From a virus (lineage: Duplodnaviria; Caudoviricetes), in the IMG/VR virus record IMGVR_UViG_3300047564_001096, positions 1-63,694 of that record: a stretch of DNA of 63,694 nt; one strand, 5' to 3'. A program made the translations under genes and the position numbers. Shown piece by piece: positions 306 through 63,694 of this stretch (the stretch's first letter is position 1; every line of letters starts with the position of its first letter). The notes beneath the pieces were generated by a model. The model was given only the letters and a program-made list of their open reading frames with translations, ran no database searches and was not told the origin of the DNA.

Positions 306-333
306 TTCCACTAGACCGTGGAAAGCTAAATAG
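306..333. promoter_or_regulatory. Palindromic site TTCCAC-N6-GTGGAA plus AGCTAAATAG tail
   Basis: TTCCAC TAGACC GTGGAA AGCTAAATAG; one of about 15 copies. Confidence 0.75.
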
Positions 334-1075: not shown

Positions 1076-1133
1076 GTTCTACATGATGAAGCCCCTTATG
1101 TAAAGTTTCACGTGTTAGTGGAACTCTATTTAG
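1076..1133 (-). promoter_or_regulatory. Putative promoter TTTACA-N17-TAGAAC with abutting palindromic site at 1106-1123
   Basis: Same architecture repeated at 1925-1972 and 2979-3025. Confidence 0.65.
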
Positions 1134-1924: not shown

Positions 1925-1982
1925 GTTATACGCATACAAGCCTCATAAGTAAAGTTTCACGCTATCGTGGAACGCTAAACAA
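1925..1982 (-). promoter_or_regulatory. Putative promoter TTTACT-N17-TATAAC with abutting palindromic site at 1955-1972
   Basis: Repeated promoter/operator architecture. Confidence 0.65.
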
Positions 1983-2724: not shown

Positions 2725-2730
2725 GATTAC

Positions 2731-2931: not shown

Positions 2932-2978
2932 ATGCTTCTCCTTGTAGTAGGTATGCTTGATTGCTTACCATGATTTAA

Positions 2979-3007: not shown

Positions 3008-3438
3008 GTTTCAGCGGGCGCGGAAGCACCCCCCACCACCCCGTTTTGCAATCTCGGTACCATCGCGCGTCTATACACAATGATCTGCACAAATAACTCC
3101 ACAAAATTCCCAAATATTCACCACTTAAGTAACAAAACTTAATGCCGATTTCGTCTAACCCTTTGATATACATAGCTTTATTTCTGCAACACATAACCCC
3201 TAATCCATATTTACTTGACATATAAATAGGTGTATACCCTACCCCCCTTACTTTTTTGGCTCTGGCCTAATGTGTTCGAGATATAGAAACACCCCCCGTC
3301 AAGGGGACCCAAAACGCAAAAACGCCGTATACTATTTTTGCTCTTCACGTGAGCAGGGGGAACGTGGGATTTTTTGACCGCTTCGCATGTTTCAACTAGT
3401 ACCCATTAGTACCCCACCCCCGCCCCACTATAAAAACA

Positions 3439-3491: not shown

Positions 3492-4070
3492 ATGGATGTA
3501 TTAATACCCAGTATTGAGGAGAACATTCCCCTCCCTAAGAATGCTCAAGAAGCATTCCCTGACCTAACTCCGACTGAAGAATTAAACATGCGGGCAGCGG
3601 TTGTAGCGCTAATGTCTGATTTGACAGGGCAACCTATCTCTCCAACGCAAGAAAACGCCGCTGAAGCTAAGGTATTAGCTAGAGAAATGCTTACAAATCC
3701 ATCAGTTAGGCCCGATTTCGCTAAATACCCTAACGAGACGCTTGCTATGCTAGCTGGTATGGTGGCTCAGATGAACGTCTCGGTAGTAGACGAGCTAGCG
3801 GAGCTTAAAACATACGTGGTTAACCACCTAGTTCACTCGGTTGAGGCTTCAAAAGACGTAAAAACCAAGATTACAGCCCTCCGTGCCCTTGGAGAAGTCG
3901 ATGGAGTGGACGCATTTAAGAAAAGAACCGAGATTACCCACAAGATTCAGACCATGGAAGAGGTCGAATCCGAGTTATTGGAGCTTTTGGACGAGGTAGA
4001 GAGCAAATATATAGACGTAGAGGCTAGAGAAGTCATTAATAAAGAGCAAGATGACCCAAAACCTGCGTAA
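3492..4070 (+). CDS. Terminase small subunit (putative)
   Basis: Position before terL; ALRALGEVDGVDAF helix motif. Confidence 0.7.
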   Translation: MDVLIPSIEENIPLPKNAQEAFPDLTPTEELNMRAAVVALMSDLTGQPISPTQENAAEAKVLAREMLTNPSVRPDFAKYPNETLAMLAGMVAQMNVSVVDELAELKTYVVNHLVHSVEASKDVKTKITALRALGEVDGVDAFKKRTEITHKIQTMEEVESELLELLDEVESKYIDVEAREVINKEQDDPKPA

Positions 4071-35792: not shown

Positions 35793-38700
35793 GTGGCTAT
35801 AAAAGAATTTACTGGCGAATTAGAACCAGTTAAACCTAGCAGGTTAGTTGAATTTACTGGAGAGTTAGAAAAACCAGAAGAAGTTAAACCTGTAAAACCT
35901 GCGAGTTTTTCTGCTAAAGATACCGCTATTGCTTTAGGGCAAGGTATTGTTGGTGCTGGTAAATCTTTAACCGATGTGTTTGGTGCTGAGAACGTAGCTT
36001 CTAGAAAGCTAGGTGAGGTATCTAAAACGCTAGGGGAACAAATCTCTCCAGAGCGCCAAGCAGAAATGCAACGGCGCCAAGTTCTACAAGAAAAAGCTTC
36101 TAAAGGTACTTTAACTGAAGAAATTAGCGCTTACTTAGGTGGCGTAACTGAAGCCCCAGTCCAAGCTCTTGCACAAGGTTTAGGTTCAATCGTGCCATAC
36201 ATTGGCACAGGAATTATTGGCGGAATTGCTAAATTAGGTGGAGCAACAATCACGGCTTTAAATACTGTGGTAGGTGCGGCTCAAGGCGCTGGTTCTATTA
36301 AGGGTTCTTTATACGACAGCGTTAAACAAGAATTAGAGAAGTCAGGAATGAGTCCCAAAGAAGCTGCAGCTAAAGCTTCTAAAGCCCAAGAGTATCTTGG
36401 AGAAAACTTCTTAGACATAGCTGGTGGCTCTGCATTAGGTGGCGTAGGCGCTAGGTTTGGTGTTGAGAAACTATTGCAAAGAGGCGCTGCTGATAAGTTA
36501 AGCCCTAGTTTAATACCCCGTGTTGGTAAGGCAGCGTTGGCTGAAGCCCCATTAGAAGGAGCACAAGGTGCTCAAGAACAGTTAGCAATTAACCGTGCCC
36601 TACAAAAACAAGGTTTTGATGTTGATACATTCCAAGGCGTAGCAGGTGCTGCTGCTCGTGACGCAGCTGTTGGTGCTTTAACTGGCGCCGCAGTAGGTGT
36701 TCGTGGACCAAGCTCAGTTGCAGAAACACCGCCGCCTCCTACTACAGAACCTGGCAAAGAAACTACAACTGCGCCTCCCCCTGTACCGCCAGTAACACCG
36801 CCTACTACAGATGCTGCTACTGAAGCTCTTTTGGCTTCTACTATTGACCCCGTTACTGGACAGTTTGTACAACAGTTTGCTACTCCATCAGCAACAGAAA
36901 CGCCTGTTATAGCCGAAGCAGATAAGCAAGCCGCTATTAAAAAGGTTTCTGAACTAGAAATTGATAATGCTAGGATTCAAGCTAAATTAGCTGCTGGCGA
37001 ATACAAAGCGCCACAAGCAAAAGCTGCTGCACAAAACAAATTAGCAAAACAACAAGCACTCATTGATGAACTTAAAACACAAATAGGAGGTCAAGATGCT
37101 TTTCAACAGACTAACGCTGGAACAAGTGGAGTTGGCGCTGGAATACCTGGAGGATCCGCAACAACTGGAGCCGCCGCAGGAGCTACAGATACTGGACTTG
37201 GACGACCTGGAGTGGACAGCGATCAGGGTCTTGAATCAGCACCTCAAGACGGAGAGAGCGCACAGCAGCCTACATTAGATATAAATCAACTAGATGAAAT
37301 AGAGCTAGCTCGGTTACAAGAGTTAGCAGATGCTAGAGAAGCTGGTTATAACATTGATGCAGAGTTAGTTAATTTAGGCAATCAAGTTCAAGAAAGATTA
37401 GCTACTACAACAGAAGTAATTGACGAACAAGCATTAGCCGACCAAGAAGCTAAAGCCGCTGCCGCAGCAGAAGCATCACGCCTAGCTGAAGAACAAAGAT
37501 TAGCTACAGAAGCTCAAGCCCAAGCCGCAGAACAAGCACGCTTAGCTGAAGAACAGAGATTAGCCGCAGAACAACAAGCTGCGTTAGAAGCAGAGCAAGC
37601 TGCATTAAATGAAGAAGCTGCCGCTGAGTTAGCTGGTGAAGTAACACCTCCTACCGTTACACCCTCTACCGTTACACCCTCTACCGTTACACCCCCTACC
37701 GTTACACCCCCTACCGTTACACCCCCTACCGTTACACCTACCAAACCTCCTGTAGTTGAAGAGTTTACTGGTGAGTTAGACGAAGAAACACCACAGGGTG
37801 CAATAGAAACTAAAGTAAAAGCCTTTGAAGACATCCGTAAGCTATTGGCGTTTCCTGAAAAATTAGGCACTTTAGATAAAAAAGCAAAAACACCTGGCGT
37901 ACAGGGCGAAGTAATTAAGGAAGAGAAAGTAGCCAAACCAATTAAATGGCGTGGCAAGAAGGGTACTAAAACCGAAAACCCATCGCCTTATAACTTCTTA
38001 AACGAAAACGGCTACTACTCTGATAAGTCCCCAGAACAAATTGCAGAGCAAAGCACGGCTATTGCAGCTAAAGACAAAAAAGCTACCGTTAAAAATGCCG
38101 TAGAAGCTGGCGTTGAATCCGCTGCCTTTGATGAGGCTTACGACTTGTATGACAGCATTGCTTACGACGAAAAGGTATTGCCAGAAATCAAACAAGTAAT
38201 GGCTCAGCGTCAAGCTGCTAAAGATGCAGAAGTAGATGCGCTTAACGAAGAACGTAAAGCTAATCGTGAAGCTAAACGGGCGCAAATGACTCGTGATGGC
38301 AAGAGCGAAAAAGTCATTAAAGAAGCTTTATCTGTAATTAAGAACGTACGAAAAGTTAAATACCAAGAGACTAAGCCGCTTGAGTTTATGTCTGAGCAAG
38401 AAGTATTAGATCTGTTTAAAAAGAATATTGGTACTAAGACTGAAAAACAGATGGCAAAAGAAGGCGGTCAGGCTAGGATAGATGCTGCTAAAAATAGAAA
38501 CGCTTTTGTAGACGTACTAAACCCTAACGATAAAATTAAGTTCAGCATGATGGCTGAATCCATACTTGATATGGAGATTATCTCGGCTGTCCAGGACAAT
38601 AAGGTTACTACTGCTGGCGACAGGCGCACTGAAAATTACAGAAAGAAACAAGAAAAGAAAGTCATTAGCGAAGTTGAACAGCAACTTAAAGACGCTGAGA

Positions 38701-46103: not shown

Positions 46104-46415
46104 TTAAATCTTCTCGCCGATCATGTCCTCTAAGTATGCCTTAGCGTGAGTGGTGTTTTTAGCTGGGAGTAACCCTTTAGCCGTATCACTTTCTACTAAG
46201 TCTGTAAACACTTCAACAAGTTGTTGATTCTTAAAGCGAATAGGTTTGCCACGGAACCAGCTATAGAGCGTCATCCTAGTTACCTTTAACGCAACAGCTA
46301 CATACTTAGAGGGTAGATTTGCTTGTATGCATGCTTTAGCTAAAGCCACCCCAGGGTAGTTGGGGTTAGCCTTACTAACTGCGTTGATTAGTTCTTGACT
46401 GTATGTCCGTGGCAT
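46104..46415 (-). CDS. Cro/XRE-like HTH DNA-binding protein
   Basis: VAVALKVTRMTLYSWFRG. Confidence 0.75.
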   Translation of the reverse strand: MPRTYSQELINAVSKANPNYPGVALAKACIQANLPSKYVAVALKVTRMTLYSWFRGKPIRFKNQQLVEVFTDLVESDTAKGLLPAKNTTHAKAYLEDMIGEKI

Positions 46416-52272: not shown

Positions 52273-52743
52273 TTATTCACGAACGTCAATGTAATTTGCA
52301 AACTTAAACAACGATGATGCCTTATTAAAATTTAATATTAGCCCTGCTTGGCGAGCATCCGCTTCCATATCATCAAAGTTATGGGTTTTTCTATTGTTTG
52401 TTAACCACTCATCCTCCTCATAAGTTTCAATAGTTTTGTTAATCTTGTTAATGTAAGTAACCTTTGTCCACGAATTTGCCTTGCCATTATTAAACATACC
52501 TCTAACAATCTTGATGTGATTACTGTGATTCCATGCCTGTATATATCCAGCAATGCCATATAAACCGTTCCAACCGCACTTGCCTGTATACATAACAACT
52601 GACCCAGCACGGTACTCAGACATAACCAACTTGCAAGTCGAGCCTGTTGGGTTGTCTAGTGGCATAGCATTGATAGCCATTTCTTGAGCATTAGCGCTCG
52701 AACACAGCAGGCCAATGCAGAAAACAAACGCTTTCATTTCCAT
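52273..52743 (-). CDS. Putative secreted protein
   Basis: Signal-peptide-like N-terminus ending ANA-QE. Confidence 0.6.
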   Translation of the reverse strand: MEMKAFVFCIGLLCSSANAQEMAINAMPLDNPTGSTCKLVMSEYRAGSVVMYTGKCGWNGLYGIAGYIQAWNHSNHIKIVRGMFNNGKANSWTKVTYINKINKTIETYEEDEWLTNNRKTHNFDDMEADARQAGLILNFNKASSLFKFANYIDVRE

Positions 52744-54614
52744 TCTTCCATCTCCCCATAGTTTTTACCAACTTGAGCTTCACATGCCACAGGCAATCCT
52801 TTAGCCCAGTCTGGTGGTGTTGACATGACCTCGACAATCCATGCACAAGCCTCGTTTACTTCATCTTCGGGAACTACGCACACCGCCGCATCATGTACGG
52901 TTAGCACAGGGCGATAGCGCTCAGTGAGTTTTAACATCTGCTCGCCCACGATGATCCGTGCAAGAGCTTGAACTACGTTTTCCACAATAGACCCGCCCCA
53001 TAGAGACACGGGGCCTTTGCGTGACTTGTATTCGTATCCGCTTTTAGTTTCATCAGTGTTGAGTTTTAGGTCGGGGTAGCGGATGTACAACCCGTTTGGC
53101 AATTTAAAGCCTTCCTTGGTAACAGCCACGCACTTATGCTTGCCATAGTAGAAAGACTTGCTAGTCGGTTGCCAGTCAGCCATAGCCTTTAGAGCTTTGT
53201 CGCCTTCTCTCCAAAGCTTAACAATCATATCGTTGGTGTCTCTGTACAATTTAACTATCTCGTCACACTTATCTTTAGTGAGGTCAGCGCCAGGCGGGCT
53301 AGTCTTTAGTGTGTGCTGTAACTTTAACGACCCAGTACCATATCCCAGTCCGAGGATGCAGGTCTTACCCACGAACCTTTCAACGGGATTCTTTTTTGTG
53401 ATTTCAATGTCATATATCTTCGACGCAAAAATGGAGTAAACATCGTCCCCGTTGGCAAACTCTTTAACCAAGTCTTCCTGACCCGAAAGCCACGCAAGTA
53501 CACGTGCTTCAATTTGAGACGAATCGCAGTTGATAACCATGTAACCTTCGGGCGCAACAACCGCATTCTTAAGGGCTTTTTTCTTTTTGTCACGGCTCGG
53601 AAGGTTTTGGAAATTGACCTTATCCGACCCTGCCCAACGACCCGTATGCGCTCCATAGTATTTAAGGGGGATTGGTAATCGTCCTTTGTTTCTTGCTCCA
53701 ACGTCAATGAAACGTTCAATGCGACTCTCCTCAATAGTTGATTTAGTCCCCAAACGCACGGCGGCGAGTTGTTGGATAAACGGGTCTTCGTGTTCAGTTA
53801 GTGCAATGAACCCTGTGTCGTTCTTTGCCAACGCATAGGTTAGCTTGCCAGTAGTCTTGCTTTCCTTCATTGGCACTTCAACACCAAAATCCTCTAGCAC
53901 TTGAGCAAATTGTTTATTACTAGCTAACTTCTTACGTACTGACTCTTCGTCTTCGCATTCAAGCTTTTCTTTAAGCGTCCCCAATAACTGTAACTTCTCA
54001 TGTTTTAGTTCTTCCAGTCGGTCAACCAAAAGAGCATCGTCTACCTCCAGCACAGGATTAATAAACATCCGCAAAGTTAAATCTATCAGTTGTAATTCGT
54101 CTGCTGGGAACGCACTCGACAATACTTGGAAGAGCTTAAAAGTTAGCTCCACATCGTTCTTACAGTATTCGCCGTATTGCGCAAGCTCGCTATTTGAGAA
54201 ACCAGTTATCTGTTTGCCTTTAGCGTCAACGACCTCTGTACCCTTCTTGCCTAAGTTATAACGCTCAGATAGGTACGCTAAAGAGCCTCCGACATCCACA
54301 CCATTGGTCGCCCTACCCATGCAAAGCGTATCGAGATATAACTTGGGTTTAATGCCAAATCGCCATGCAAGGATTGCACCATCAAACATCGTGTTATGAC
54401 AAAGGAGAGCAGAATCGTTCCACGGGTACGTGGAAAGGTATTTTTGGATGTCAAGGTGTGAGCCAGAGAACCATTCAGTGATGCCCTCGCCAACCTTGAC
54501 ACCAACACCAATCACTTCAAAGCGTTTGTCCCTGATGTATTCCTCAGTTGTTAGCTTAGTTAGTGAGTAGTCTTGAGCGTAGTAAGTCTCAAAGTCTAGA
54601 GTAATGAGGTTCAT
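52734..54614 (-). CDS. polA: DNA polymerase family A (3'-5' exonuclease + polymerase)
   Basis: Exo I LDFET; motif A DSSQIEAR; motif B R...KTCILGLGYG; motif C VHD. Confidence 0.95.
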   Translation of the reverse strand: MNLITLDFETYYAQDYSLTKLTTEEYIRDKRFEVIGVGVKVGEGITEWFSGSHLDIQKYLSTYPWNDSALLCHNTMFDGAILAWRFGIKPKLYLDTLCMGRATNGVDVGGSLAYLSERYNLGKKGTEVVDAKGKQITGFSNSELAQYGEYCKNDVELTFKLFQVLSSAFPADELQLIDLTLRMFINPVLEVDDALLVDRLEELKHEKLQLLGTLKEKLECEDEESVRKKLASNKQFAQVLEDFGVEVPMKESKTTGKLTYALAKNDTGFIALTEHEDPFIQQLAAVRLGTKSTIEESRIERFIDVGARNKGRLPIPLKYYGAHTGRWAGSDKVNFQNLPSRDKKKKALKNAVVAPEGYMVINCDSSQIEARVLAWLSGQEDLVKEFANGDDVYSIFASKIYDIEITKKNPVERFVGKTCILGLGYGTGSLKLQHTLKTSPPGADLTKDKCDEIVKLYRDTNDMIVKLWREGDKALKAMADWQPTSKSFYYGKHKCVAVTKEGFKLPNGLYIRYPDLKLNTDETKSGYEYKSRKGPVSLWGGSIVENVVQALARIIVGEQMLKLTERYRPVLTVHDAAVCVVPEDEVNEACAWIVEVMSTPPDWAKGLPVACEAQVGKNYGEMEEWK

Positions 54615-54775
54615 TCGCTATCTTTTTCTTTTCTCTCGTCTAGCTCAACTTTTGCTAACTCTACTAAGTAATCTTTTTCATCTATACCAAGCTTCTTAGC
54701 TAACTCTAATTGAACATCGGTCACTATAAATTGGTGAAATGTTTTACCGTCTTTTTTTATTTTGATGGTCTTCAC
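54611..54775 (-). CDS. 54-aa protein resembling the scaffold C-terminus (not in ORF track)
   Basis: AAGGA SD, GTG start, ATGA overlap with polA; MKTIKIKKDGKTFHQFIVTDVQLELAKKLGIDEKDYLVELAKVELDERKEKDSE. Confidence 0.75.
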   Translation of the reverse strand: MKTIKIKKDGKTFHQFIVTDVQLELAKKLGIDEKDYLVELAKVELDERKEKDSE

Positions 54776-54807
54776 TTAAATCCTTAAATAACAAATTCAA
54801 TAGATAC

Positions 54808-54842
54808 AAAAATAGGGAGCAGAGCATAAGCCCGACTCCCTA
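54808..54842 (-). terminator. Terminator-like hairpin
   Basis: TAGGGAG...CTCCCTA followed by T5 on - strand. Confidence 0.6.
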
Positions 54843-54846
54843 GGGG

Positions 54847-55263
54847 TTACTTGCTTAGATTATTAAGTTCTCTAGCGAGATACCATTGCGCCTTCTGCAA
54901 ATCTTCTAACTTACTTCCTTTGTGGTCAGCACGTGTGATGTACTTGACTACATTGCCAAGGTTATAGTTAAGAGACTTTGCCTCGATGAAATCAATAGTC
55001 TCAATCCCGCCCGCCTTGTAGTGTGGAGGGTGGTTGACGTTATCAACACCTTGCATCCTTAGCTTTCCACGCTGGGGTGGAACTCTATTTACTGGTGCAA
55101 GAGCCGTCATTGGTAATGACTTAGCTTTCTTCTTAGCATTGTATTTAGTTTGATACACAGTATTGATACTCACTCCAACGGCTTTAGCTACTTCACTTGC
55201 AAGAGCCTTTGGATGACTACGGATATAGCGTAACACTTTGGTGGCTTTGGTTAACTTCTTCAT
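54847..55263 (-). CDS. HTH + DUF3310 (T7 gp1.7-like) protein
   Basis: DNVNHPPHY..GGIETID...GNVVKY..R..HK...EDL.KA.WY; N-terminal EVAKAVGVS HTH. Confidence 0.85.
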   Translation of the reverse strand: MKKLTKATKVLRYIRSHPKALASEVAKAVGVSINTVYQTKYNAKKKAKSLPMTALAPVNRVPPQRGKLRMQGVDNVNHPPHYKAGGIETIDFIEAKSLNYNLGNVVKYITRADHKGSKLEDLQKAQWYLARELNNLSK

Positions 55264-55458
55264 TTACTTCTCCTTTTTAGTTGAACTACGTTTTACTGCG
55301 ACAATTCCTGTTTCATCTTTAGCGTTGCGAGCCTTAAGCATTGCATCTGCGTAGGTATATGCCACTTTTGCTACATCGTTAATAAGAAGTTCGTTTTGTT
55401 GAATTAAGCCCATTAATGCAAACATGGCAAAACAATCTCTTAGGTCTTGCTCATTCAT
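55264..55458 (-). CDS. Hypothetical protein
   Basis: LRDCFA...AY..ADAML.AR motif. Confidence 0.8.
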   Translation of the reverse strand: MNEQDLRDCFAMFALMGLIQQNELLINDVAKVAYTYADAMLKARNAKDETGIVAVKRSSTKKEK

Positions 55459-55597
55459 CTTGTTTGTCCTTTAAAAATTCTTCCATTAACTCAATCGCCC
55501 GATTGAAACCAGTTGTATAAGCCTCCTCAAGTCCGCCATCAGAAGTTATAAACTTCTCGTCTTCAATCCAGTCTTCAAACTCTTTCTTTGCTCTCAT
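55451..55597 (-). CDS. 48-aa hypothetical protein MRAKKEFEDW... (not in ORF track)
   Basis: GGAGG SD; overlaps both neighbours. Confidence 0.65.
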   Translation of the reverse strand: MRAKKEFEDWIEDEKFITSDGGLEEAYTTGFNRAIELMEEFLKDKQDE

Positions 55598-55881
55598 GAG
55601 AAATGCACCTCCATATATTGATTAACATTAGATTCATTGATGACAAAAGCATAGCCACCATTCTTTTCAATCCGATCAAGGTTATCCATTTGCAATGCCG
55701 TAGGTTTGTTAGCACCCGACTTAATCTCTAAGCCGTAGAACTTTCCTTTGTGACACACGACAATGTCAGGCGCACCGCTACTTCCGTATCCACCTGTGGC
55801 TGGCATGATGTAATAGATTCCTTTTTCTTTAAGATATTTCTTAACTACGTCTTTAACTTTTCCTTCGGGTGTCATCGCCAT
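55594..55881 (-). CDS. VRR-NUC domain nuclease (start at MAMTPE; ORF extends to 55968)
   Basis: TPEGKVK...SGAPD...GLEIK...PTALQ. Confidence 0.88.
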   Translation of the reverse strand: MAMTPEGKVKDVVKKYLKEKGIYYIMPATGGYGSSGAPDIVVCHKGKFYGLEIKSGANKPTALQMDNLDRIEKNGGYAFVINESNVNQYMEVHFS

Positions 55882-55957
55882 ATCAATTTCTTCCTGTTCT
55901 TGTTGTTGAAGGGTAGTCTGTCTCTTCCAAAACCTACCCCAATAAAGTCTTTCTTCT

Positions 55958-56305
55958 TTATTCACCACGCAATGCCATTAAAGATTTATAGGAGAGGATG
56001 ATGCAAAACCAACTGTCACTTGCTCGCCATCCTATATCTCTGAAATTACTATCAACTGTCGTAGTCATCAGATGTAATTTAGTTACGTCATGGTCGCTTA
56101 CAATCTGCTTCGCATTTGCCAGCACCATCGCCATCTTGGTCTTAACTTCATCAGGCAATGTGTGTTCATCAAATACCCGATTAAAGTCATCACCAACATA
56201 TATGGTGTAGGAGTTTCCTTCCCTATGCAAAGGGACACGATAGAGGTTGAAGTCATACTGGTGAACTACTGGGCTTAAATCCCTGAGCATGGAATCAATG
56301 TCCAA
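55958..56305 (-). CDS. Hypothetical protein
   Basis: 115-aa ORF in operon. Confidence 0.75.
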   Translation of the reverse strand: MDIDSMLRDLSPVVHQYDFNLYRVPLHREGNSYTIYVGDDFNRVFDEHTLPDEVKTKMAMVLANAKQIVSDHDVTKLHLMTTTVDSNFRDIGWRASDSWFCIILSYKSLMALRGE

Positions 56306-57210
56306 TGTAGGTTGAACTCATTTACTGGGCGAGTAGAAATATTTATCAGGTCAAGGTCAGGGTTGTATCCACTCTTGGCTGGAACGATATTTGCGTAGAA
56401 CTCGGTAACATTCTTACCCTCTGCATGAACCTTGTTCATAAGCATGACTGCCTTGAACTCGTCAGGCAATTCCTTTACACGCTTGAACGGCTTGACTTCA
56501 TGGAAGTAATACTCGTCGTGACCTTGTCTTGGCATCGCTTTAACTGAACCTATAACTAAATGATTTAACTTATCTGCACCGATTGCATAGAACTCATTGA
56601 GGAAAAATCTTTCAATATCTTTTCGCTTCTCTACCTTGATTCTATCTTGCCCATTCCATTTGTCAAGTACTTCTTTACAATTATTTAGATTTAAATTACT
56701 AGGACTTTCCCCTAGTAAGATTACCTTGAGCATTGTATGAATTTCGTCGGCAGAAAAATTAGTTTGCTTCCAATCTCGACCATGATGAGAGTCCATCTGA
56801 TTAATACCAGCATTAAAAGATTCTTTACAGACTGTCATTAGTGTTCCACCGATGGGTGGAACGACATTTTGTCGCTTAAGTGTAGCCATCAGCGTTGAGA
56901 GTTTTTTACTATGCAAAGTCTCTCGGTCAGCAGAGTCAGAGCCACGCTCTTTCTTGTAGAAAGGCGAGCGATAGTTATACACGTCATGCCCATCTTCCTT
57001 GTCTACCCACACCTTTGCCACCATGAAACCGCTAGATTCAGCGAGTAAAAAGCTAGTAGGACTACTACGGCTTAGAGCATGAGGATCAACTTTGTCTACA
57101 ACCTTCAGACCATACTTAAAGTTTAGTTCCTGTATGAGTCTTTTAGCTGACGAGTCATTAATAAGATGCTCGAGATGCTCACTTTCAAATCCTTCGTATA
57201 TGAGTTTCAT
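56275..57210 (-). CDS. Hypothetical protein (start refined to MKLIYE)
   Basis: AAGGAG SD before 57210. Confidence 0.8.
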   Translation of the reverse strand: MKLIYEGFESEHLEHLINDSSAKRLIQELNFKYGLKVVDKVDPHALSRSSPTSFLLAESSGFMVAKVWVDKEDGHDVYNYRSPFYKKERGSDSADRETLHSKKLSTLMATLKRQNVVPPIGGTLMTVCKESFNAGINQMDSHHGRDWKQTNFSADEIHTMLKVILLGESPSNLNLNNCKEVLDKWNGQDRIKVEKRKDIERFFLNEFYAIGADKLNHLVIGSVKAMPRQGHDEYYFHEVKPFKRVKELPDEFKAVMLMNKVHAEGKNVTEFYANIVPAKSGYNPDLDLINISTRPVNEFNLHWTLIPCSGI

Positions 57211-57221
57211 ATTACTTCTCC

Positions 57222-58238
57222 TTATAGTTGTTCTACTTCTTTGCCATTGACAAACACATCCACGCCCCACTCACTTGGAGGGTATGCTTCGTTAGGTACA
57301 TACTCTGTGAGTTTCATAACTGATGGATTACTCTTGTACAACTCCTTGTTCAGCTTACGTTTGAGATTACTGAACACTACGTCTAACTCCACCTCTCGCC
57401 TGTAACTACTGCCATTGGGTTCAGCGAACGCACGATGTTTTGAATACAAACTCTGAACGTCGTACGCAAGTGCGTACGCAATGCCAGCATCTAGTGATGC
57501 AGTATTTAGATTCTCCTCGGCAAACTTAATAAGTTTCTCTTGCTCTGCGCTATGCAAAGACCAATTTTCTGTTGTTATGCCCAATGACTTTAATACATCA
57601 GCCATCGCTTCCATGTAGCCTTTCCAGTCCATCGCCTTGAGCATGACTTCGTTGATTTTGTAGAAGTCTGTGTATCGGCTAAGAAAGTACTTGGCATCCT
57701 TACGACTAACACGCTTGCCAACAACTTTGTAAACGCTACTCTCATGGGGCATCATCGTCTCGCAGTTAAGTCTCATACCTTTAAAGATTGGATGAAAGAT
57801 TGAACTCACGTAGTTTGACTTATATATCATTCCACCATGACGTGAACTCCTAAGAAACCACCCACTCGCCCAGTTAGACATAATCATGTTGTCGCCCTGT
57901 CCGTAATATTTAGCAGTAAATTCAAACGTATTGTCTGAACGCACTATGCCCAACTCACTAGGAACTGAACTATAACTTTCATAGACGGTGTTTCCTTCCC
58001 AGTCTTCTCTCTCGTGAATAGTGCCTTGGTTGGCTTGCCACTCTTCTTTCGTATGCTCATTACGCTTATGGGTATAACCATACCGCACCACATACACTTG
58101 CTCGCCGTTACGCTCTTCGCTTACAAAGTCTTTAGTGTTGTGTCGTCTGTCACCAATGGGAAACCGATTGGTTGTCCCTCGGTATGGCTTTTGAGTTTTA
58201 GTAATGTCGGTAAGTCTGTCCCACGTCAATGCTTTCAT
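57222..58238 (-). CDS. Hypothetical protein
   Basis: 338-aa ORF with SD. Confidence 0.85.
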   Translation of the reverse strand: MKALTWDRLTDITKTQKPYRGTTNRFPIGDRRHNTKDFVSEERNGEQVYVVRYGYTHKRNEHTKEEWQANQGTIHEREDWEGNTVYESYSSVPSELGIVRSDNTFEFTAKYYGQGDNMIMSNWASGWFLRSSRHGGMIYKSNYVSSIFHPIFKGMRLNCETMMPHESSVYKVVGKRVSRKDAKYFLSRYTDFYKINEVMLKAMDWKGYMEAMADVLKSLGITTENWSLHSAEQEKLIKFAEENLNTASLDAGIAYALAYDVQSLYSKHRAFAEPNGSSYRREVELDVVFSNLKRKLNKELYKSNPSVMKLTEYVPNEAYPPSEWGVDVFVNGKEVEQL

Positions 58239-58423
58239 TGTCCTTCTCCTTTAAAGTGTTTATCTATATCGTTTAGTATGTCTTTCCAAATCTTTACACT
58301 AAACTCATCGCCTTCGTGTGTTGCTATCCTTCCTAATGCTATCGTGTATGCTCCTTCTCCATGACGTTTTATCAAGTCTTCTACAAGCCCATGTTTGATT
58401 CGTGCATATCCGCCGTCGCCCAT
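58235..58423 (-). CDS. Hypothetical protein
   Basis: Tightly packed ORF. Confidence 0.65.
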   Translation of the reverse strand: MGDGGYARIKHGLVEDLIKRHGEGAYTIALGRIATHEGDEFSVKIWKDILNDIDKHFKGEGQ

Positions 58424-58425
58424 GC

Positions 58426-59742
58426 TTACTCCCTTTCAAAGATAACTTTCTTACCGCATGGAATTTCTAAGCCACGGTTCTGAGTAATCATCCACAGGGT
58501 AGGTGGAACGATATTCCACTCGATGTCATGCTCGACGTAGCCATCGGTGAACACAATCACACACTCTGCGTTAAGTTTCTTCTCATTGATGTAAGTCGCA
58601 ACAGACCCCACGTGAGTACCACCACCGCCTAATGGTTTTAGTAATGATGCAATGTTGTTAAACGATTCGGGCTTGAAGACTTGTTCGCCATGCACCATGG
58701 TGTCCCACCACAAAACACGTACCGTTTCGGGTTGCACAAGGTCACAGATGGATGCCAGTTCTGAGGCAAACTCGGTAAGTTCAGCACCGCCGATAGAGCC
58801 TGACGTATCAATGGCTACGATAACCTCGCCGATAGTTTCGTTCTCCATGCTTGGCATATAAATATCATTTGCCATCTGACGCTTGTTCATCTTGCGCCAA
58901 GTGAACTCATCCTTGCCTTTCATCGCTGATGAAACAAAGTCACGTAGTGCATCTCGCCAATCAATCTTGGGTTCAAGTAACTCTCCGATAGCACGTGGCA
59001 TCTTTGCACCCATACGACCAGCGAGCATACCGCCCTCACGCAAAGCCTTATCAATCCCATCCGATAGTTCTTTGAGTTCTTCGGGAGTTATGTCCTTAAA
59101 TGATTCCCAGTCATGCTCATCGAAACCATCGCCACCCATGTCATACTCTTTGCCATTGGCTTTGATTTTGTTATCTTGCTTTCCACCCTGTGATGGAGAA
59201 CTATTCTGCGAATCATCATTGCCATCGCCTTGTTCGTCATCATCACTAGGTGAGCCTGATGAGCTACCCTTACCTTTACCTCGCTGAGGATTCTCTTTAC
59301 GGATATAGTTGTAGACCTCACGCATATTCCAGTTGTGAAAGAATGGGTCATACAACGCACCTTCGGGCAACGCAACAATAGCCTCGTTACCTCCGCTAAT
59401 AGTTCCTTTGATGTTGAAGATGATGTCGTTGACTACAAAATCCGCCGCCATGTTTGCAATCTTAGAATCTTCCTTGAACATATCCTTGCCACGTGGGATT
59501 TGTTTCAATGCCACATGAAGATTCTCATGGAGGACAAGACCACGCAACTTGGGTTCACAGTCGATAGTCTCTAAGAATGGCTTAGAGTATCTCTTGTTGA
59601 CACCATCGGTGTATGCCGTAAACATATCATCGCTCACCTCTGACTTACCCATCAGCATGACACCGCTATACAACGCAGTCTCAGGATGTTTCATTAGTGC
59701 GATGTGCGCTTTCTTCAAGCGAACTTCTTGTTTGTTATTCAT
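58426..59742 (-). CDS. DUF2201-type metallopeptidase + vWA domain protein
   Basis: TAYTDG, HENLH (HExxH), MIDAS DTSGS, GGGGT, FTDG. Confidence 0.9.
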   Translation of the reverse strand: MNNKQEVRLKKAHIALMKHPETALYSGVMLMGKSEVSDDMFTAYTDGVNKRYSKPFLETIDCEPKLRGLVLHENLHVALKQIPRGKDMFKEDSKIANMAADFVVNDIIFNIKGTISGGNEAIVALPEGALYDPFFHNWNMREVYNYIRKENPQRGKGKGSSSGSPSDDDEQGDGNDDSQNSSPSQGGKQDNKIKANGKEYDMGGDGFDEHDWESFKDITPEELKELSDGIDKALREGGMLAGRMGAKMPRAIGELLEPKIDWRDALRDFVSSAMKGKDEFTWRKMNKRQMANDIYMPSMENETIGEVIVAIDTSGSIGGAELTEFASELASICDLVQPETVRVLWWDTMVHGEQVFKPESFNNIASLLKPLGGGGTHVGSVATYINEKKLNAECVIVFTDGYVEHDIEWNIVPPTLWMITQNRGLEIPCGKKVIFERE

Positions 59743-59745
59743 TTG

Positions 59746-59841
59746 TTACTCCTTGTTAATTAGACAATATAAAAATCCTGTAATCACACCCAAACCGTAC
59801 ATGATTAAAGACCACATAAATATTCCGATTCCGACATCCAT
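59746..59841 (-). CDS. 31-aa single-TM peptide MDVGIGIFMWSLIMYGLGVITGFLYCLINKE (not in ORF track)
   Basis: GAGGAGG SD; hydrophobic; fills the gap. Confidence 0.6.
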   Translation of the reverse strand: MDVGIGIFMWSLIMYGLGVITGFLYCLINKE

Positions 59842-59869
59842 AGCTTTCCACCTCCTCGTGGTTAGTTAA

Positions 59870-60943
59870 TTAGAACAACTCGTGATTGTTTTTAGCCCAC
59901 TCTGCAATCTGCATATTGTGGCGAGCCAACTTGGTTGCCTTGGTGTTACGCATCATCATGGTAAAGAACACCGCTTGCACCTCTGAACTAGGAATCTTAT
60001 TAACGAACTTCATGAACTTGTTCAACTCGTCTTGAGTCTCTAGCACGTCGACTGCTTGGAACATAATCATTAACTGCGCTGATACCTCGTCGGGAACTTT
60101 AACTCCGTCTGGATCTTTGACGATGTCTTTTACATCCATCAGAGTCTTCTCTAGCGATAGAAACGCTGACATATCACCAGCACCAGCAAGACCGATAGTG
60201 CCAGCCAATGCGACCATCGTTGCGTTCTCACCCAATGTATCCCGATTACGCACAATCACGTCGCACTTAGCTAGAGACCTTGGCGAACAGAATGATAGTT
60301 GAGTCTTCTTGGGGTTGAACACGTATGGGTTGTCATCTTGGTTGCCATCACGATACGATGCCAATGTCCTTGGGAACAACGCAACGAACGCACGAACAAC
60401 ACGAGAGATACCTCTAGATGATGCCCACTCTAGCCAGTCATTGACTGATGGTTTGCTCATCTCCATGATGCACACACGATTACCAGCATGGGCGAGCATT
60501 GTGTCGCCGACCCCGTCGCTTGCATTATTCGACGTGCCGAAAACTATGCTTCCACTTGGTAGTGGAACGTCACCTACCATTCTCTCCAACATTAGTCGGG
60601 TAAAGATAACTTGCAATAGCTTTGGTGCTTTCATGAACTCGTCGAGCAAGATGACCTTTGGCTTAGGAGAGTCAAGCTTGAAGAGAGACGAAACATAATA
60701 CTCAAGAGACTTACTAGCATGATTGGGTATCGTCATACCTACGTCGGACATATCCTTGACAGGACAGTCCACATAGATATAGTCGTACTTGTCGCCATGG
60801 TCTGCTTCCATCATGGACAATATAGAAGTCTTACCACACCCAGGCTCAGAGACTATGATTGGTGTGATTTCTGAACCTATTAGGGGAATGACTTTGCGTA
60901 ACTCGTTGATGGTTACGGTTGCATTGAAGTTAAGTTTGCTCAT
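59870..60943 (-). CDS. MoxR/AAA_5-like AAA+ ATPase
   Basis: SEPGCGKTS, LLDE, GTSN, NR, SPRS. Confidence 0.9.
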   Translation of the reverse strand: MSKLNFNATVTINELRKVIPLIGSEITPIIVSEPGCGKTSILSMMEADHGDKYDYIYVDCPVKDMSDVGMTIPNHASKSLEYYVSSLFKLDSPKPKVILLDEFMKAPKLLQVIFTRLMLERMVGDVPLPSGSIVFGTSNNASDGVGDTMLAHAGNRVCIMEMSKPSVNDWLEWASSRGISRVVRAFVALFPRTLASYRDGNQDDNPYVFNPKKTQLSFCSPRSLAKCDVIVRNRDTLGENATMVALAGTIGLAGAGDMSAFLSLEKTLMDVKDIVKDPDGVKVPDEVSAQLMIMFQAVDVLETQDELNKFMKFVNKIPSSEVQAVFFTMMMRNTKATKLARHNMQIAEWAKNNHELF

Positions 60944-60959
60944 TTGTATTTCTCCTTGA

Positions 60960-61871
60960 TTAGATTGAATTGAAACTACCGAACTTGGAAAGAATATCGT
61001 CTATGCCTTCCTTAACATGATGGCGAACTGCATCGGAATCTCGAATGTCCTCTGCCTTCACACCACGTAATACTTCTTCTAGCGATGCACGTGCCTGTTC
61101 CAATCCTGAATCATTCTTAAGATTGAATCGCTTAAAACTTTCGCACATTTCTAGGGCTTTTTGTATCGTTGTGTCGTAAATCTTGCGACGCTTGGTGCGA
61201 ATCTCGCCGTTGACCTCTGACTCATCGACACCGCAACAATGCGAGATGGACTCCATAACCTCGACCATGCGTTCTGATTGTTCTTGCGCAATGGATTCGA
61301 TAATGCCGTGAGCCTGCTTTTTGTATGTATTAAACAAGTCATCAGCGATGTCCTCTGCTATCCCACAGCGAAAGTCGTTCATTGGCACTTCGGACACATA
61401 CAGGTTCAAGCTGAACTTGGAGTGAACTTGTTCTTTAGTTGGGTAGTCATCTCGGTTGAACATAGTACCTTGCTTGAAAGCCATGTCGGACACGATTGAA
61501 TCGTAGTCGCTTGTTAATGAATCCACTAACGCATGGAAAGCTATTTGATGTTCGTGATACTCTTGCTTGAACTTAGGCACGTCAACGCTTGGCAACAAAT
61601 TCTGCGATTGATTCCAGCGATAGGTGCGACGTTGAAGCCAGTTGTATACGGTCTGCCGATAATTCACCACCGCCTTGTGCTTGGGATGATTAGCCAACAG
61701 ATTCTTAACATACCTGCCCGCGGACTTATCCGCATTCTTTGCCGTAGTAACTTCATCACTGATGCCACGGTCTTGCTTGGTTGCTGACCACACGCTGATG
61801 TCTACGCTTACTAGGACTGCTGAACTAGCAAGGCTAATCAGGTGATCGGGTTTGGTTAATTCCATATTCAT
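60960..61871 (-). CDS. DUF3150-like protein
   Basis: Typical partner upstream of AAA/vWA; YPT...KF motif. Confidence 0.55.
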   Translation of the reverse strand: MNMELTKPDHLISLASSAVLVSVDISVWSATKQDRGISDEVTTAKNADKSAGRYVKNLLANHPKHKAVVNYRQTVYNWLQRRTYRWNQSQNLLPSVDVPKFKQEYHEHQIAFHALVDSLTSDYDSIVSDMAFKQGTMFNRDDYPTKEQVHSKFSLNLYVSEVPMNDFRCGIAEDIADDLFNTYKKQAHGIIESIAQEQSERMVEVMESISHCCGVDESEVNGEIRTKRRKIYDTTIQKALEMCESFKRFNLKNDSGLEQARASLEEVLRGVKAEDIRDSDAVRHHVKEGIDDILSKFGSFNSI

Positions 61872-62007
61872 ACACTTCTCCTTGGTTTGATTGAACTACG
61901 CTAAAAGTAAATCCACTATCACGTGGTAAGCTAAATAGCCCACCGCTACAACAACTAATAACTTCCCCCAAAAGTCTTCCATAAAAGTATCCTCCTCCAG
62001 TTTCATA

Positions 62008-62036
62008 AGTATACCATAACTTTACATTTGAGTCAA
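62008..62036 (-). promoter_or_regulatory. Strong sigma70 promoter TTGACT-N17-TATACT (copy 1)
   Basis: 29 nt identical to 63345-63373. Confidence 0.85.
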
Positions 62037-62059
62037 TGGTGATGTATGACTTTTTTATC

Positions 62060-62473
62060 TCACTCCCAGTCCACATACACCGACCGATTGACTCCTACCC
62101 AGTCATGTTCGCCGTTACCCCACACTTCCTCGACATTGTCATTAGTGTCCTCACCCACACGAGCAAACGCACCACCTATATATAAGTCATTCGTGTTGCC
62201 CTCGTCAGCCCACTCTCGTGCCAATCCCATCAAGCACTCGTGACATTGGACATCGGGGTAAGACTCATACCACTTGACTTCTTCGGCAAAGAACCTAATC
62301 TCCAGCTTGTCTTCAAGAACCTTAAAGACTTCATCCTCTTGTTCTGAAAAGCACAATGCCGTTGTCTCCTTTGACTTCGCTTCCGCTATGAATGTATAGA
62401 ACGAATGCTTGGCTTTAGTGTCATCCTCGCCCCCGAATCGTATGGTGTATGCAACAGTTGACCTATACCCCAT
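62060..62473 (-). CDS. Hypothetical acidic protein
   Basis: MGYRS...KWYESY...FARVGE. Confidence 0.85.
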   Translation of the reverse strand: MGYRSTVAYTIRFGGEDDTKAKHSFYTFIAEAKSKETTALCFSEQEDEVFKVLEDKLEIRFFAEEVKWYESYPDVQCHECLMGLAREWADEGNTNDLYIGGAFARVGEDTNDNVEEVWGNGEHDWVGVNRSVYVDWE

Positions 62474-62657
62474 GTTCTTCTCCTATGAATGTTCTAACCC
62501 AGTCTACGTATATCTCGTCTGCGTAGAGCCACCTTGCCATTCGCTTACTGTTTGGCACGTCTATCGGGTAATTAACCAATAGAGCATGGTTGTCGCACCG
62601 CACCAGCTTGTAGAACTCAGGCTTGTCGGGCTTGCGATATAACTTAATGACTTTCAT
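62463..62657 (-). CDS. Hypothetical protein
   Basis: Coupled small ORF. Confidence 0.7.
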   Translation of the reverse strand: MKVIKLYRKPDKPEFYKLVRCDNHALLVNYPIDVPNSKRMARWLYADEIYVDWVRTFIGEEHGV

Positions 62658-62835
62658 ACACCACCTCTTTCAGTTTGACCAACTCTCGGTCAAGGGCTTC
62701 CTCGCCCACCTCGTTGCGGATACGCAAAATCCTGTCTACGTTTCCACCATCTAGTAGAAACCTAGCCATCTCGTTACCGCCTGACCGAACCGCATTGATA
62801 ACTTGGAGTAGAAATATCTTATCTTCGCCTTTCAT
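62644..62835 (-). CDS. Hypothetical protein
   Basis: Coupled small ORF. Confidence 0.7.
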   Translation of the reverse strand: MKGEDKIFLLQVINAVRSGGNEMARFLLDGGNVDRILRIRNEVGEEALDRELVKLKEVVYESH

Positions 62836-63050
62836 TTGATTAGCCCTCCCTTGTTGTTGAGTCCCTTCAAGTCCTCTCTGTTGGTAATCATCATGTAGTT
62901 TGACTTGTGCATTGGTGCAACTGTGCGAACCACCTTCGTTGCTAGGTCATCACCGCATGGCATACAAATCGCATAGCCGATGGCTAACCGTTCCGCAGCG
63001 TAGGTCATACCGCATAGCTTACATTGTGGATTAAAAGTCTCATCAATCAT
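62832..63050 (-). CDS. Small Zn-finger protein
   Basis: CKLCG...R...GY..CMPCG...PMHKSNY. Confidence 0.75.
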   Translation of the reverse strand: MIDETFNPQCKLCGMTYAAERLAIGYAICMPCGDDLATKVVRTVAPMHKSNYMMITNREDLKGLNNKGGLIK

Positions 63051-63238
63051 GGTAGGTATCCTCTGTCGTCACCGAACGATGCTTCGTACTTGTCCAACCA
63101 GTCGTTGAACTCTGCTTCGTATATCGCCCATGCTTCGTCGCTATCTTCCATTCCACGATATCGTGGGTCGAGAATTGGCTTTTGTTTGCTAGCACGATGT
63201 TCTTCAAATTGAATCAAAGCATTTTTAAGTTTGCCCAT
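63047..63238 (-). CDS. Hypothetical protein (start refined to MGKLKN)
   Basis: AAGGAG SD; first gene after the promoter. Confidence 0.7.
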   Translation of the reverse strand: MGKLKNALIQFEEHRASKQKPILDPRYRGMEDSDEAWAIYEAEFNDWLDKYEASFGDDRGYLP

Positions 63239-63267
63239 GTCCTTCTCCTTCATTAGAGTTGAATGAT

Positions 63268-63295
63268 TTCCACTACCTCGTGGAAAGCTAAATAG
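63268..63295. promoter_or_regulatory. Palindromic site TTCCAC-N6-GTGGAA plus AGCTAAATAG tail
   Basis: Perfect copy in the leader downstream of promoter 63345-63373. Confidence 0.75.
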
Positions 63296-63344
63296 CGTTG
63301 AAGGGTTCGTCTTGCTTGGTAATAACTTGCCCATCAACATTATT

Positions 63345-63373
63345 AGTATACCATAACTTTACATTTGAGTCAA
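63345..63373 (-). promoter_or_regulatory. Strong sigma70 promoter TTGACT-N17-TATACT (copy 2)
   Basis: 29 nt identical to 62008-62036. Confidence 0.85.
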
Positions 63374-63542
63374 CCTCTTGTATGACTTTTTTTCGTGATG
63401 GGTAGCCAAAAAAATTCCAAGTTTGAGAAAAAGTTCCAGCGAAGTTCCAGTTTTAAAAAGCGAATTGGAATTTTTTTAGACTTAGTAGAAATGGGCTGAG
63501 AGCCTTATAAAATAAGGATGTAGTAGTAGTAGTATTCTTAAT

Positions 63543-63694
63543 AAATATATAAAAATTCCAAAATTCCAAGAAAATTTAAGAGGGGATACCGTCTGGTGCT
63601 AAATAGTTGCACTGGCTGAGCAAGCCTTGCTCTCCCTCTTTTTTCTCAATTACCCCCTGTCCCCTTCGTGCAAAACTTGGAATTTTGGAATTTC
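63543..63694 (+). repeat. Imperfect terminal direct repeat, right copy
   Basis: Matches 1-152 at about 87% identity. Confidence 0.9.

Follow-up and report, generated by a model that had tools for sequence, protein, structure and literature searches.

A lineage-specific interrupted palindrome dispersed over the early arc of uncultured freshwater phages: a candidate operator array

Dispersed, lineage-specific repressor sites have so far been a hallmark of temperate phages, in which they underlie superinfection immunity. In the Cluster A mycobacteriophages (L5 with gp71, Bxb1 with gp69) 20-30 repressor sites are scattered over the genome, some in promoters and most not; many of these stoperators lie at or within genes, are oriented with transcription and follow a lineage-specific consensus that tracks the repressor, as given in the available part of the source (PMC6550527). 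The extended start-associated sequences (ESAS) of Cluster K phages are imperfect inverted repeats of ~17 bp with a variable spacer and a better kept left repeat, which stand ahead of gene starts in the non-structural half only and differ between subclusters at few positions; their function was unknown in 2011 (PMC3203893, available part). Here an array of the interrupted palindrome TTCCAC-N6-GTGGAA is described in the virus record IMGVR_UViG_3300047564_001096 (Caudoviricetes), the whole of which, 63,694 bp, is called the window. The array is confined to one arc of early genes, is under selection as DNA and has changed its specificity in concert between close relatives.

Six perfect copies occur in the window compared with none in 100 dinucleotide-preserving shuffles, and 17 copies with up to two mismatches compared with 2.46 expected and a largest shuffle value of 6 (Table 1). 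Sixteen of the 17 lie in 54418-63285 or 306-1972, and the copy-bearing arc, 54418-63694 plus 1-3026, comprises 12.3 kb or 19% of the genome; the array does not extend beyond the 5' end of polA, leaving the replication genes (43-54 kb) without copies. A weight matrix trained on 98 distinct copies from 26 relatives, with the window excluded, picks out 16 places in the window; every one falls in 306-1955 or 54418-63268, the stretch from 3 to 54.4 kb being empty, and each of 20 simulated genomes is matched 0-1 times. A distribution not due to chance had been proposed in an initial annotation, whose six perfect copies and nine copies with one or two mismatches were all recovered, 59181 being added by the scan, as were the genes to which it had assigned copies (polA, 52734-54614; the DUF3310 gene, 54847-55263; a hypothetical gene, 56275-57270; the AAA gene, 59870-60943). 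Its statement that 3.5-54 kb is free of copies holds for the matrix and fails for the mismatch scan, where 29240, with 2 mismatches, is the lone match outside the arc. The 7-bp-spacer variant at 58490 and the degenerate copy at 3009 that it had noted are visible in the sequence and fall under the scan thresholds. The copies at 63268 and 61911 are intergenic, in 5' untranslated regions (5'UTRs). A limited literature search returned no relevant publication that matched the half-site words together with phage.

The full site spans ~36 bp and consists of an outer arm TAwwTAGCk, the inner arm TTCCAC, a free 6-bp spacer and a weaker mirror image. In the logo of 113 distinct copies it reads T-A-w-w-T-A-G-C-k / TTCCAC / N6 / GTGGAA with the downstream mirror T-A at +21/+22 and +25/+26, and the information per position amounts to 0.4-0.9 bit in the upstream outer arm and 0.2-0.5 bit in its downstream mirror. 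Because the upstream arm is the stronger, 15 of the 16 matrix places score higher on the gene strand. The half-sites are 6 free bases apart in all 17 copies. The outer arm is kept with other cores in the relatives G011 (TATTTAACG then CTTCAG), G013 (ACTTAACG then CTTCCG) and G010 (TAATTAACG then ACCCAG...CTGGGT then CGTTAA); since lineages with different cores retain it, the unit is a composite imperfect palindrome with a conserved outer and a variable inner arm. The flank that had been noted as shared by several copies is the outer arm of this larger palindrome. The copies lack the features of intrinsic terminators (a G+C-rich stem and a U run on the transcribed strand); a terminator scan flags five of them on the + strand, antisense to the genes, and two on the - strand, the tails being the A/T-rich outer arm read as TAAATA or TATTTA.

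The copies at 3009, 1955 and 1106 each stand between a terminator and a sigma70-like promoter (TTTACA/TTTACT, 17 nt, TATAAC/TAGAAC); at these promoters (P3009, P1955 and P1106) the -35 hexamer starts 1 nt past the core, within the downstream outer arm. Promoter-like -35 hexamers 1-3 nt past the core are found in the window and in L006, L014, L019, L022, L026, L031, L043, L051 and G011. The copies at 63268 and 61911 lie about 50-65 nt below twin strong promoters, with the start codons 29 and 39 nt further on, and the order strong promoter, site, Shine-Dalgarno sequence (SD) is retained in G001, G011 and L076. Across 11 genomes, 40 of 79 copies are intergenic though the arcs are 68-90% coding.

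Of the 16-18 copies in the window, 10-11 are inside genes. When synonymous codons were shuffled 300 times, gene by gene, in a set of 23 early genes totalling 11,916 nt, with the proteins unchanged, the shuffles averaged 0.05 perfect copies compared with 4 observed, 0.63 compared with 5 at up to one mismatch and 2.6 compared with 10 at up to two, and none of the 300 attained the observed intragenic counts. The copies are therefore a product of codon choice, and it is the DNA rather than the protein that is selected at them.

A scan with the DUF2201 protein encoded in the arc yielded 80 related loci. At least two copies of the window motif at up to one mismatch are present in 25 of these and none in 52; nearly all the other loci bear a different dispersed palindrome in the same arc, the inner arm varying by lineage, and 9 of the 80 have no obvious motif. 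The classes with a 6-bp centre comprise CCCAG-N6-CTGGG, CTTCAG-N6-CTGAAG, CTTCCG-N6-CGGAAG, GTTTCAC-N6 and TTCAT-N6, to which TTCTGG-N7 is added; those with a short centre are TCTGACA-N-TGTCAGA, CGAATCA-NN, CTGACA-NN, GTTATAC-N and TATTAAAC-NN; further ones are CCTAACA-N-TGTTAGG (up to 19 copies in 21 kb), CTAACA-N2 and -N3, GTTAGTC-N4 and the contiguous pair TTCTAAC and GTTAGAA. Family-wide there are at least 15 palindrome classes, contigs of metagenome-assembled genomes (MAGs) contributing additional ones. Nine more relatives, represented by whole or partial records, likewise have their cognate motif in a single arc only, which measures about 3 to 20 kb. Complete CCCAG-class genomes were sought by pattern scans, which returned three contigs, or at least 120 unrelated single matches; the records of G010 and G015 lack the first 5 kb of the early region. 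The gene content between copies varies among relatives.

A switch of specificity is recorded between close relatives. In a tree of the AAA, DUF2201 and 303-aa proteins, L026 (TTCCAC) nests with L025 and L027 (CCCAG), with Shimodaira-Hasegawa-like approximate likelihood ratio (SH-aLRT) values of 100 for the trio and 95 for L026 plus L027. Nucleotide identity of L026 with L027 is 79.6-91.3% in BLAST blocks, five of six between 83 and 91%, and 83% over all aligned columns; with L025 it is 70.5-87.0% per block. Between these genomes TTCCAC..GTGGAG of L026 corresponds to CCCCAG..CTGGGC of L025 and L027 in the zinc-ribbon gene (with amino-acid changes), TTCCAC..GTGGAT to GGCCAG..CTGGGT ahead of the 303-aa gene, GTCCAC..GTGGAA to GGCCAC..CTGGGT in the AAA gene, AACCAC..GTGGAA to ACCCAG..CTGGGT in the DUF2201 gene and CTCCAC..GTGGAA to CCCCAG..CTGGGT by the DUF3310 gene. 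The same symmetric substitutions convert four of six orthologous sites relative to L027 and six of eight relative to L025, some of them intragenic and altering amino acids. L026 also retains two perfect CCCAG-type sites (11627 and 12657), ahead of the homologs of genes 57222-58238 and 56275-57270, so that one genome carries two site types.

Compared with the systems described above, the array resembles the L5 stoperators, to which the initial annotation had pointed, in its dispersal beyond promoters and into genes, in the number of its members (~17), in its orientation bias and in cores that differ between lineages. In contrast, stoperators are asymmetric 13-14-bp sites, occur on both arms of the genome and belong to temperate phages whose repressor is known, whereas the window site is a composite interrupted palindrome in the early arc only, and no repressor, integrase or partition gene (parABS) was found with it: the 64 proteins scanned, among which the late-region open reading frames (ORFs) are covered only in part, include no integrase, ParA/ParB or recognisable repressor. 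The ESAS of Cluster K are the closest described architecture, the window having likewise arms of ~15 bp (with a 6-bp spacer), a stronger upstream arm, early-arc confinement and a lineage-specific inner arm. Unlike the window copies, ESAS go with a 13-bp asymmetric start-associated sequence and, in the available part of PMC3203893, are not reported inside genes or by -35 boxes; conversely, no 13-bp start-associated repeat is present in the window, where ordinary SDs only follow the copies. Since host and phage lineage are unrelated to those of the window, the likeness is one of architecture and not of homology. The present array may also explain the ESAS repeats.

Dispersed sites of other kinds were also compared with those of the window, which number ~17. 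The window's half-sites are 6 bp apart and its core varies between close relatives, unlike parS, a contiguous 16-bp palindrome. ParB-parS and RK2 KorB-OB are dispersed palindromes, some near promoters and some far from them or intragenic, from which a dimer silences at a distance. The split-parS centromere suggested in the initial annotation found no support, since the core varies from lineage to lineage, unlike an expected host ParB site; no ParB or ParA domain occurs among the proteins scanned, and the AAA protein is of MoxR type only. In phiC31 (conserved inverted repeats) and P1 (C1 operators), both temperate and with identified repressors, one repressor acts on many intergenic operators, which are dispersed over the phage genome as the window sites are; to our knowledge these have not been reported under selection in coding sequence or with a conserved plus a variable arm. 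N4 has few virion-RNA-polymerase promoters, located at one genome end, with a 3-nt loop, a required base and a giant polymerase. The window shares with N4 short inverted repeats in the early region, as well as DUF2201 and AAA proteins that have distant N4-like relatives, and differs by its many copies, its free spacer and the lack of a polymerase among the proteins scanned.

The copies are interpreted here as places on double-stranded DNA, operators or roadblocks, at which a regulator encoded by the phage would repress early transcription, an explanation in which confidence and doubt are about equal. The symmetric, probably dimeric, sequence-specific protein that had been postulated across the early arc is supported by symmetry, confinement, codon shuffles and class switches, and we infer that a protein binds, that it represses and that it is of phage origin. 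The predicted regulator would be symmetric (dimeric or higher) and would lower transcription of the early arc; the outer arm is common to several lineages and the inner arm (TTCCAC here) would set the specificity. At P3009, P1955 and P1106 the bound protein would occlude the promoter, because the downstream outer arm overlaps the -35 hexamer. Below the strong promoters (63373 and 62036) the site in the transcribed leader would act as a roadblock and might loop with copy 306, on the far side of promoter 63373, and the copies inside genes would serve as further roadblocks or as anchor points for cooperative binding.

Several observations weigh against an operator array. Single intragenic sites are unexceptional in conservation, their arms ranking 124 of 351 in the AAA gene, 460 of 620 in polA and 373 and 527 of 975 in gene 56275-57270; more divergent relatives have lost copies. 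Between L026 and L027 no switched site is exceptional, as at least as many arm differences occur in 11-19% of windows, and the pooled excess is modest (21 of 72 compared with a rate of 0.166, P = 0.0055). A further pooled count, 34 of 96 compared with 0.240 (P = 0.0079), is likewise only moderately above background; the recurrence of identical substitutions across sites, and not the count of differences, is taken to be what matters for the switch. In G014, seven of nine copies stand 3-4 nt before the SD, a fixed spacing more expected of an RNA-level signal or a cassette than of a transcriptional site. That the effect would be repression and not activation is deduced only from position. With no integrase, ParAB or recognisable repressor found, a role in immunity is without support from lifestyle. 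Finally, no binder emerged from HTH covariation tests or column screens, and the early paralogs considered below are only weakly class-linked, with a confident model that has no known DNA-binding fold.

It is unlikely that the signal acts as RNA, namely as a short hairpin of the early mRNAs, just 5' of ribosome sites, whose recognition by an endoribonuclease or RNA-binding protein of the phage would govern translation, processing or stability. Many intergenic copies do stand 13-50 nt before a start codon, with the G014 spacing as the extreme, the spacer of 59846 contains an SD, perfect copies fold as 6-8-bp hairpins (-9 to -15.7 kcal/mol, z -1 to -3.9), and a role in translation was proposed for the Cluster K start-associated repeats (PMC3203893, available part). 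Nevertheless, four of the best copies (3009, 1955, 1106 and 306) are outside the main transcripts because each follows a terminator and precedes a promoter, the copy at 1955 fails to form the hairpin (z = -0.56), and no Rfam family matches. Among 141 distinct single-mismatch copies of eight classes, 69 are changed in the left arm and 72 in the right; 90 break pairing on both strands, and G-U-compatible changes in the sense RNA are not in excess over those in the antisense only (20 compared with 31). In the N0-N2 classes (CCTAACA-N-TGTTAGG, TCTGACA-N-TGTCAGA, GTTATAC-N-GTATAAC, ATTAAAC-NN-GTTTAAT) the symmetry spans bases that cannot pair in a hairpin, and the two outer arms do not complement each other at their variable positions (28 and 23 of 105). 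These results speak for a symmetric protein that would recognise the site as duplex DNA. A promoter element, read by a phage-specific factor or polymerase either as a class II-type activator site by a weak -35 or as an N4-style hairpin promoter, is quite unlikely too. Promoters of phage polymerases in T7-like phages show the same dispersed, oriented and lineage-specific pattern as the copies, which occur about once per kb and often just before genes; the sites next to the -35 at P3009, P1955 and P1106, with the weak -10 hexamers TATAAC/TAGAAC, could mean activation; the N1 classes would form a 6-bp stem with a 3-nt loop, as the early promoters of N4 do; and the closest isolated-phage relatives of the DUF2201 protein are N4-like podophages (26-29% identity), while the genome encodes a virion-type protein of 2392 aa. 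Against these points, no RNA polymerase or sigma-like protein is found among the proteins scanned, the giant protein matching LPD38 only and no PDB polymerase, and genes 57222-58238 and 56275-57270 have no matches; two copies lie below strong sigma70 promoters, in the leader; the N1 classes leave their centre base unconstrained; and the full site is a two-sided palindrome.

Handling of the chromosome, whether by scattered centromere or loading sites of the ParB/KorB or N15 SopB kind or by an origin-organising array with secondary effects on transcription, is improbable. RK2 KorB and N15 provide precedents of dispersed, partly intragenic centromere or operator sites, and copies 306 and 63268 flank an iteron-rich, origin-like non-coding stretch, as they do in G001 and G011. 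This stretch (63400-63694 plus 1-300, ~730 bp) contains A-tracts and half-site-like TTCCAR/YTGGAA iterons at 7-8 per 600 bp compared with a genome mean of 0.9, and is probably an origin or another protein-binding region. However, G001, G002 and G011 have up to 19 iterons per 600 bp in the same place whatever their palindrome class; as the TTCCAR iterons are constant where the palindrome differs, they belong to another system. Moreover, no ParB, ParA or KorB-like domain is present among the proteins scanned, and the enrichment at promoters and ribosome sites would be left unexplained. Highly improbable is a role as recombination cassettes, in which repeats at gene boundaries would offer short homologies for module shuffling on the model of the promoter-stem-loop cassettes of T4. 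The gene content between copies differs among relatives, and a contig of run X5 joins 63295 to sequence like the window from 334 onward, copy to copy; yet intragenic copies are maintained via codon choice, and homology needs neither the palindromic form nor a free spacer nor a concerted switch of specificity. The joint comes from a single contig: the outer arm of copy 63268 runs straight into the sequence after 306, which would delete the iteron stretch and promoter 63373, and it may reflect recombination between two copies or an assembly effect.

As for the protein that would bind an operator array, the two helix-turn-helix (HTH) proteins named in the initial annotation (46104 and 54847) both fail to covary with the variable arm. 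In the winged helix-turn-helix (wHTH)-DUF3310 protein, the wHTH is missing in the TTCCAC genomes G001 and G002, and the window and G003 have different recognition helices. Of 20 records searched, 18 encode the HTH protein 46104-46415, which has a weak match to phrog_409 ('transcriptional regulator') and no PDB relative; the recognition helix of this protein varies independently of motif class, L043 (TTCCAC) matching TTCAG genomes and G018 (TTCTGG-N7) having the helix of G012 (TCTGACA). Screens for class-concordant columns in 11 and 24 protein families gave nothing convincing, conserved early and replication proteins showing 0-3 columns; the class-linked columns of the portal/capsid region reflect clade among three comparison genomes. 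The 54-aa ORF 54611-54775, ribbon-helix-helix-like by eye, was discarded: none of the related loci has a homolog of it, and contigs of runs X5 and X8 show 12 other letters in its place (window 54599-54773); it is therefore a strain-specific insertion just upstream of polA.

The pair of ~200-aa paralogs (448-1059 and 1223-1861, - strand), which had also been proposed as binders, each have their own site, promoter and terminator and are confined to N6/N7 lineages. In favour of this proposal there is one weak class-linked reversal, the L043 copy being 40% identical to that of the window and 29-34% to those of its backbone sisters. On the other side, the family forms two old subfamilies, both found in TTCCAC genomes, and its tree is not decisive; the AlphaFold2 model (pLDDT 86) has no PDB fold match (best E = 2.6), and Atlas gives only hypothetical viral clusters (0.86).

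The fast and concerted change of specificity is of the kind that immunity systems display (PMC6550527), and hints at cross-regulation between related phages. A tentative, rather doubtful extension of the operator interpretation is an immunity-like specificity system in a large family of integrase-less, apparently lytic freshwater phages. The conserved outer arm would dock a conserved module and the inner arm would be read by a fast-evolving determinant of an undescribed DNA-binding family, of which the early paralogs are one possibility; in a switch a dozen sites would be converted in concert while the genomes diverge by about 10-20% in nucleotides, and the driving force would be cross-regulation among relatives that co-infect or are resident. 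The logic of temperate repressor sites recurs here in an uncultured freshwater phage family in which no lysogeny genes were seen. The switch between close genomes offers a handle on the way in which a regulator changes in step with a dozen scattered targets, and raises the further question of what selects new specificities in a seemingly purely lytic phage; once binders are found, a set of orthogonal operator sequences would be available.

Table 1. Copies of the palindrome, associated promoters and large late ORFs of the window; relatives are given by their handles.
Feature	Position	Strand	Location and surroundings	Relatives
Degenerate copy CTTCCG-N6-CTGAAA (gene orientation)	3009..3026	-	directly upstream of the promoter-like element heading the leftward arc; tied by direct repeat family D14 to 1921-1959 and 1072-1110	
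Promoter-like element	TTTACA 3007-3002, 17-nt spacer, TATAAC 2984-2979	-	heads the early arc	
Copy, 1 mismatch, with outer arm	1955..1972	-	matrix score 32.3; ahead of gene 1223-1861; terminator 2061-2038 before, promoter-like TTTACT 1953-1948, N17, TATAAC 1930-1925 after	
Copy, 1 mismatch, with outer arm	1106..1123	-	matrix score 32.5; ahead of gene 448-1059; terminator 1217-1196 before, promoter-like TTTACA 1104-1099, N17, TAGAAC 1081-1076 after	
Perfect copy, full outer arm (to 333)	306..323	-	after terminator 443-414, upstream edge of the iteron-rich non-coding stretch	orthologs in L006, L009, L010, L019, L022, L024
Perfect copy, full outer arm (to 63295)	63268..63285	-	5'UTR, about 50 nt below promoter 63345..63373 and 29 nt before the ATG of gene 63047-63238	arrangement also in G001, G011
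Copy, 2 mismatches	63151..63168	-	inside gene 63047-63238	orthologs in L006, L009, L015
Copy, 1 mismatch	62742..62759	-	inside gene 62644-62835	orthologs in L006, L022, L024
Copy, 2 mismatches, full outer arm (to 61938)	61911..61928	-	5'UTR, 39 nt before the ATG of gene 60960-61871	
Copy, 2 mismatches	61521..61538	-	inside gene 60960-61871	orthologs in L009, L010, L018
Perfect copy	60550..60567	-	inside the MoxR-like AAA gene 59870-60943	CCCAG-type right arm at the orthologous place of L027, L025
Copy, 2 mismatches	59846..59863	-	between the AAA and DUF2201 genes	
Copy, 2 mismatches	59181..59198	-	inside the DUF2201 gene 58426-59742; absent from the initial annotation	
7-bp-spacer variant, weak	58490..58508	-	inside the DUF2201 gene; read by eye, under scan thresholds	
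Copy, 2 mismatches, doubtful member	57830..57847	-	inside gene 57222-58238, on the strongly conserved peptide SSRHGGM	
Perfect copy	56844..56861	-	inside the fast-evolving gene 56275-57270	0-1 mismatch in L005, L006, L007, L008, L009, L010, L019; gone in more distant relatives
Copy, 2 mismatches	56367..56384	-	inside gene 56275-57270	
Perfect copy with outer arm	55065..55082	-	inside the wHTH-DUF3310 gene 54847-55263	
Perfect copy, last of the arc	54418..54435	-	near the 5' end of polA (52734-54614)	
Strong sigma70-type promoter TTGACT-17-TGnTATACT	63345..63373	-	10/12 matches, extended -10; drives the operon behind copy 63268	
Second strong sigma70-type promoter, same hexamers	62008..62036	-	upstream of copy 61911	
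ORF of 510 aa		+	large terminase by position and size only	
ORF of 844 aa		+	portal by position and size only	
ORF of 2392 aa	35793-42971	+	LPD38 domain near the C-terminus; HEVGH metallopeptidase-like motif	

Among the individual copies, that at 57830 may be protein-driven: its arms rank 3 of 996 windows for conservation, the peptide SSRHGGM is retained down to 34% identity, and it is the sole matrix place that scores higher on the + strand. At 59846 the overlap with an SD seen in the initial annotation is real, the spacer and right arm containing the ribosome site GAGGAGG of a 31-aa hydrophobic ORF (59841-59746, - strand, MDVGIGIF...) that is unannotated and stands between the AAA gene and the DUF2201 gene. 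Five intragenic copies were compared for codon phase: 60550, 56844, 56367 and 57830 agree in the reading xTT CCA Cxx xxx xGT GGA Axx, which encodes V/I-P-x-x-S/G-G, and 54418, in polA, is in another phase.

The window is a complete virus record (CheckV 100%) with ends classed as 'linear'. Its first 151 bases (1-151) repeat the last 151 (63543-63693) at 88% identity, which read across the record end amounts to a tandem duplication; this repeat indicates that the record probably opens inside a tandem or terminal repeat, where the assembly broke, and not at a genuine genome end. Genes on the - strand run from 43 kb to the record end and continue from 1 to ~3.0 kb, forming one leftward arc that starts near 3000. 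Besides small proteins without matches, the two paralogs and the polA and wHTH-DUF3310 genes, this arc encodes the MoxR-like AAA protein, which matches phrog_1297 ('ATPase'), MoxR-type PHROG and Pfam models and weak AAA models, the DUF2201 VWA/metallopeptidase protein, a PD-(D/E)XK nuclease, a SNF2 helicase and a DUF927 primase-helicase. The PHROGs label of the DUF2201 family is 'HNH endonuclease', to which Pfam domains give no support. Profile and structure searches gave no matches for genes 57222-58238 and 56275-57270, and the reading of 62832-63050 as TraR/DksA-like, made by eye, found no support in Pfam, PHROGs or NCBIfam.

The phage looks lytic. A nucleotide search against isolate phages gave no match, and the closest isolates by polA are the Pseudomonas phages phiR18 and KPP25 (35% identity); the related phages come from at least 10 freshwater or drinking-water studies and the family is uncultured. 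Among the 24 loci from a scan of genome contigs there was no prophage relative, the hits being mis-binned MAG contigs and one isolate locus with only the AAA/DUF2201 pair, which give no evidence on host or lifestyle. An RNA sequencing run contributed only 12 short contigs, 90-95% like the window, from which transcript ends cannot be read and whose gaps in coverage carry no weight.

The + strand between 3.5 and 43 kb carries the packaging and virion genes, the 192-aa ORF 3492-4070 having no match to a packaging family. The 2392-aa product is probably an injected polyvalent protein; it matches no PHROG family and in Pfam LPD38 only, the best PDB match being a primase (E = 0.2), and contains Pro/Thr- and Ala/Glu-rich repeats, with 15-nt tandem units at 37626-37745. 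Long glycine-rich GGY repeats with a fibre- or collagen-like look lie inside late genes on the same strand, at 21590-23180 and 25080-25160.

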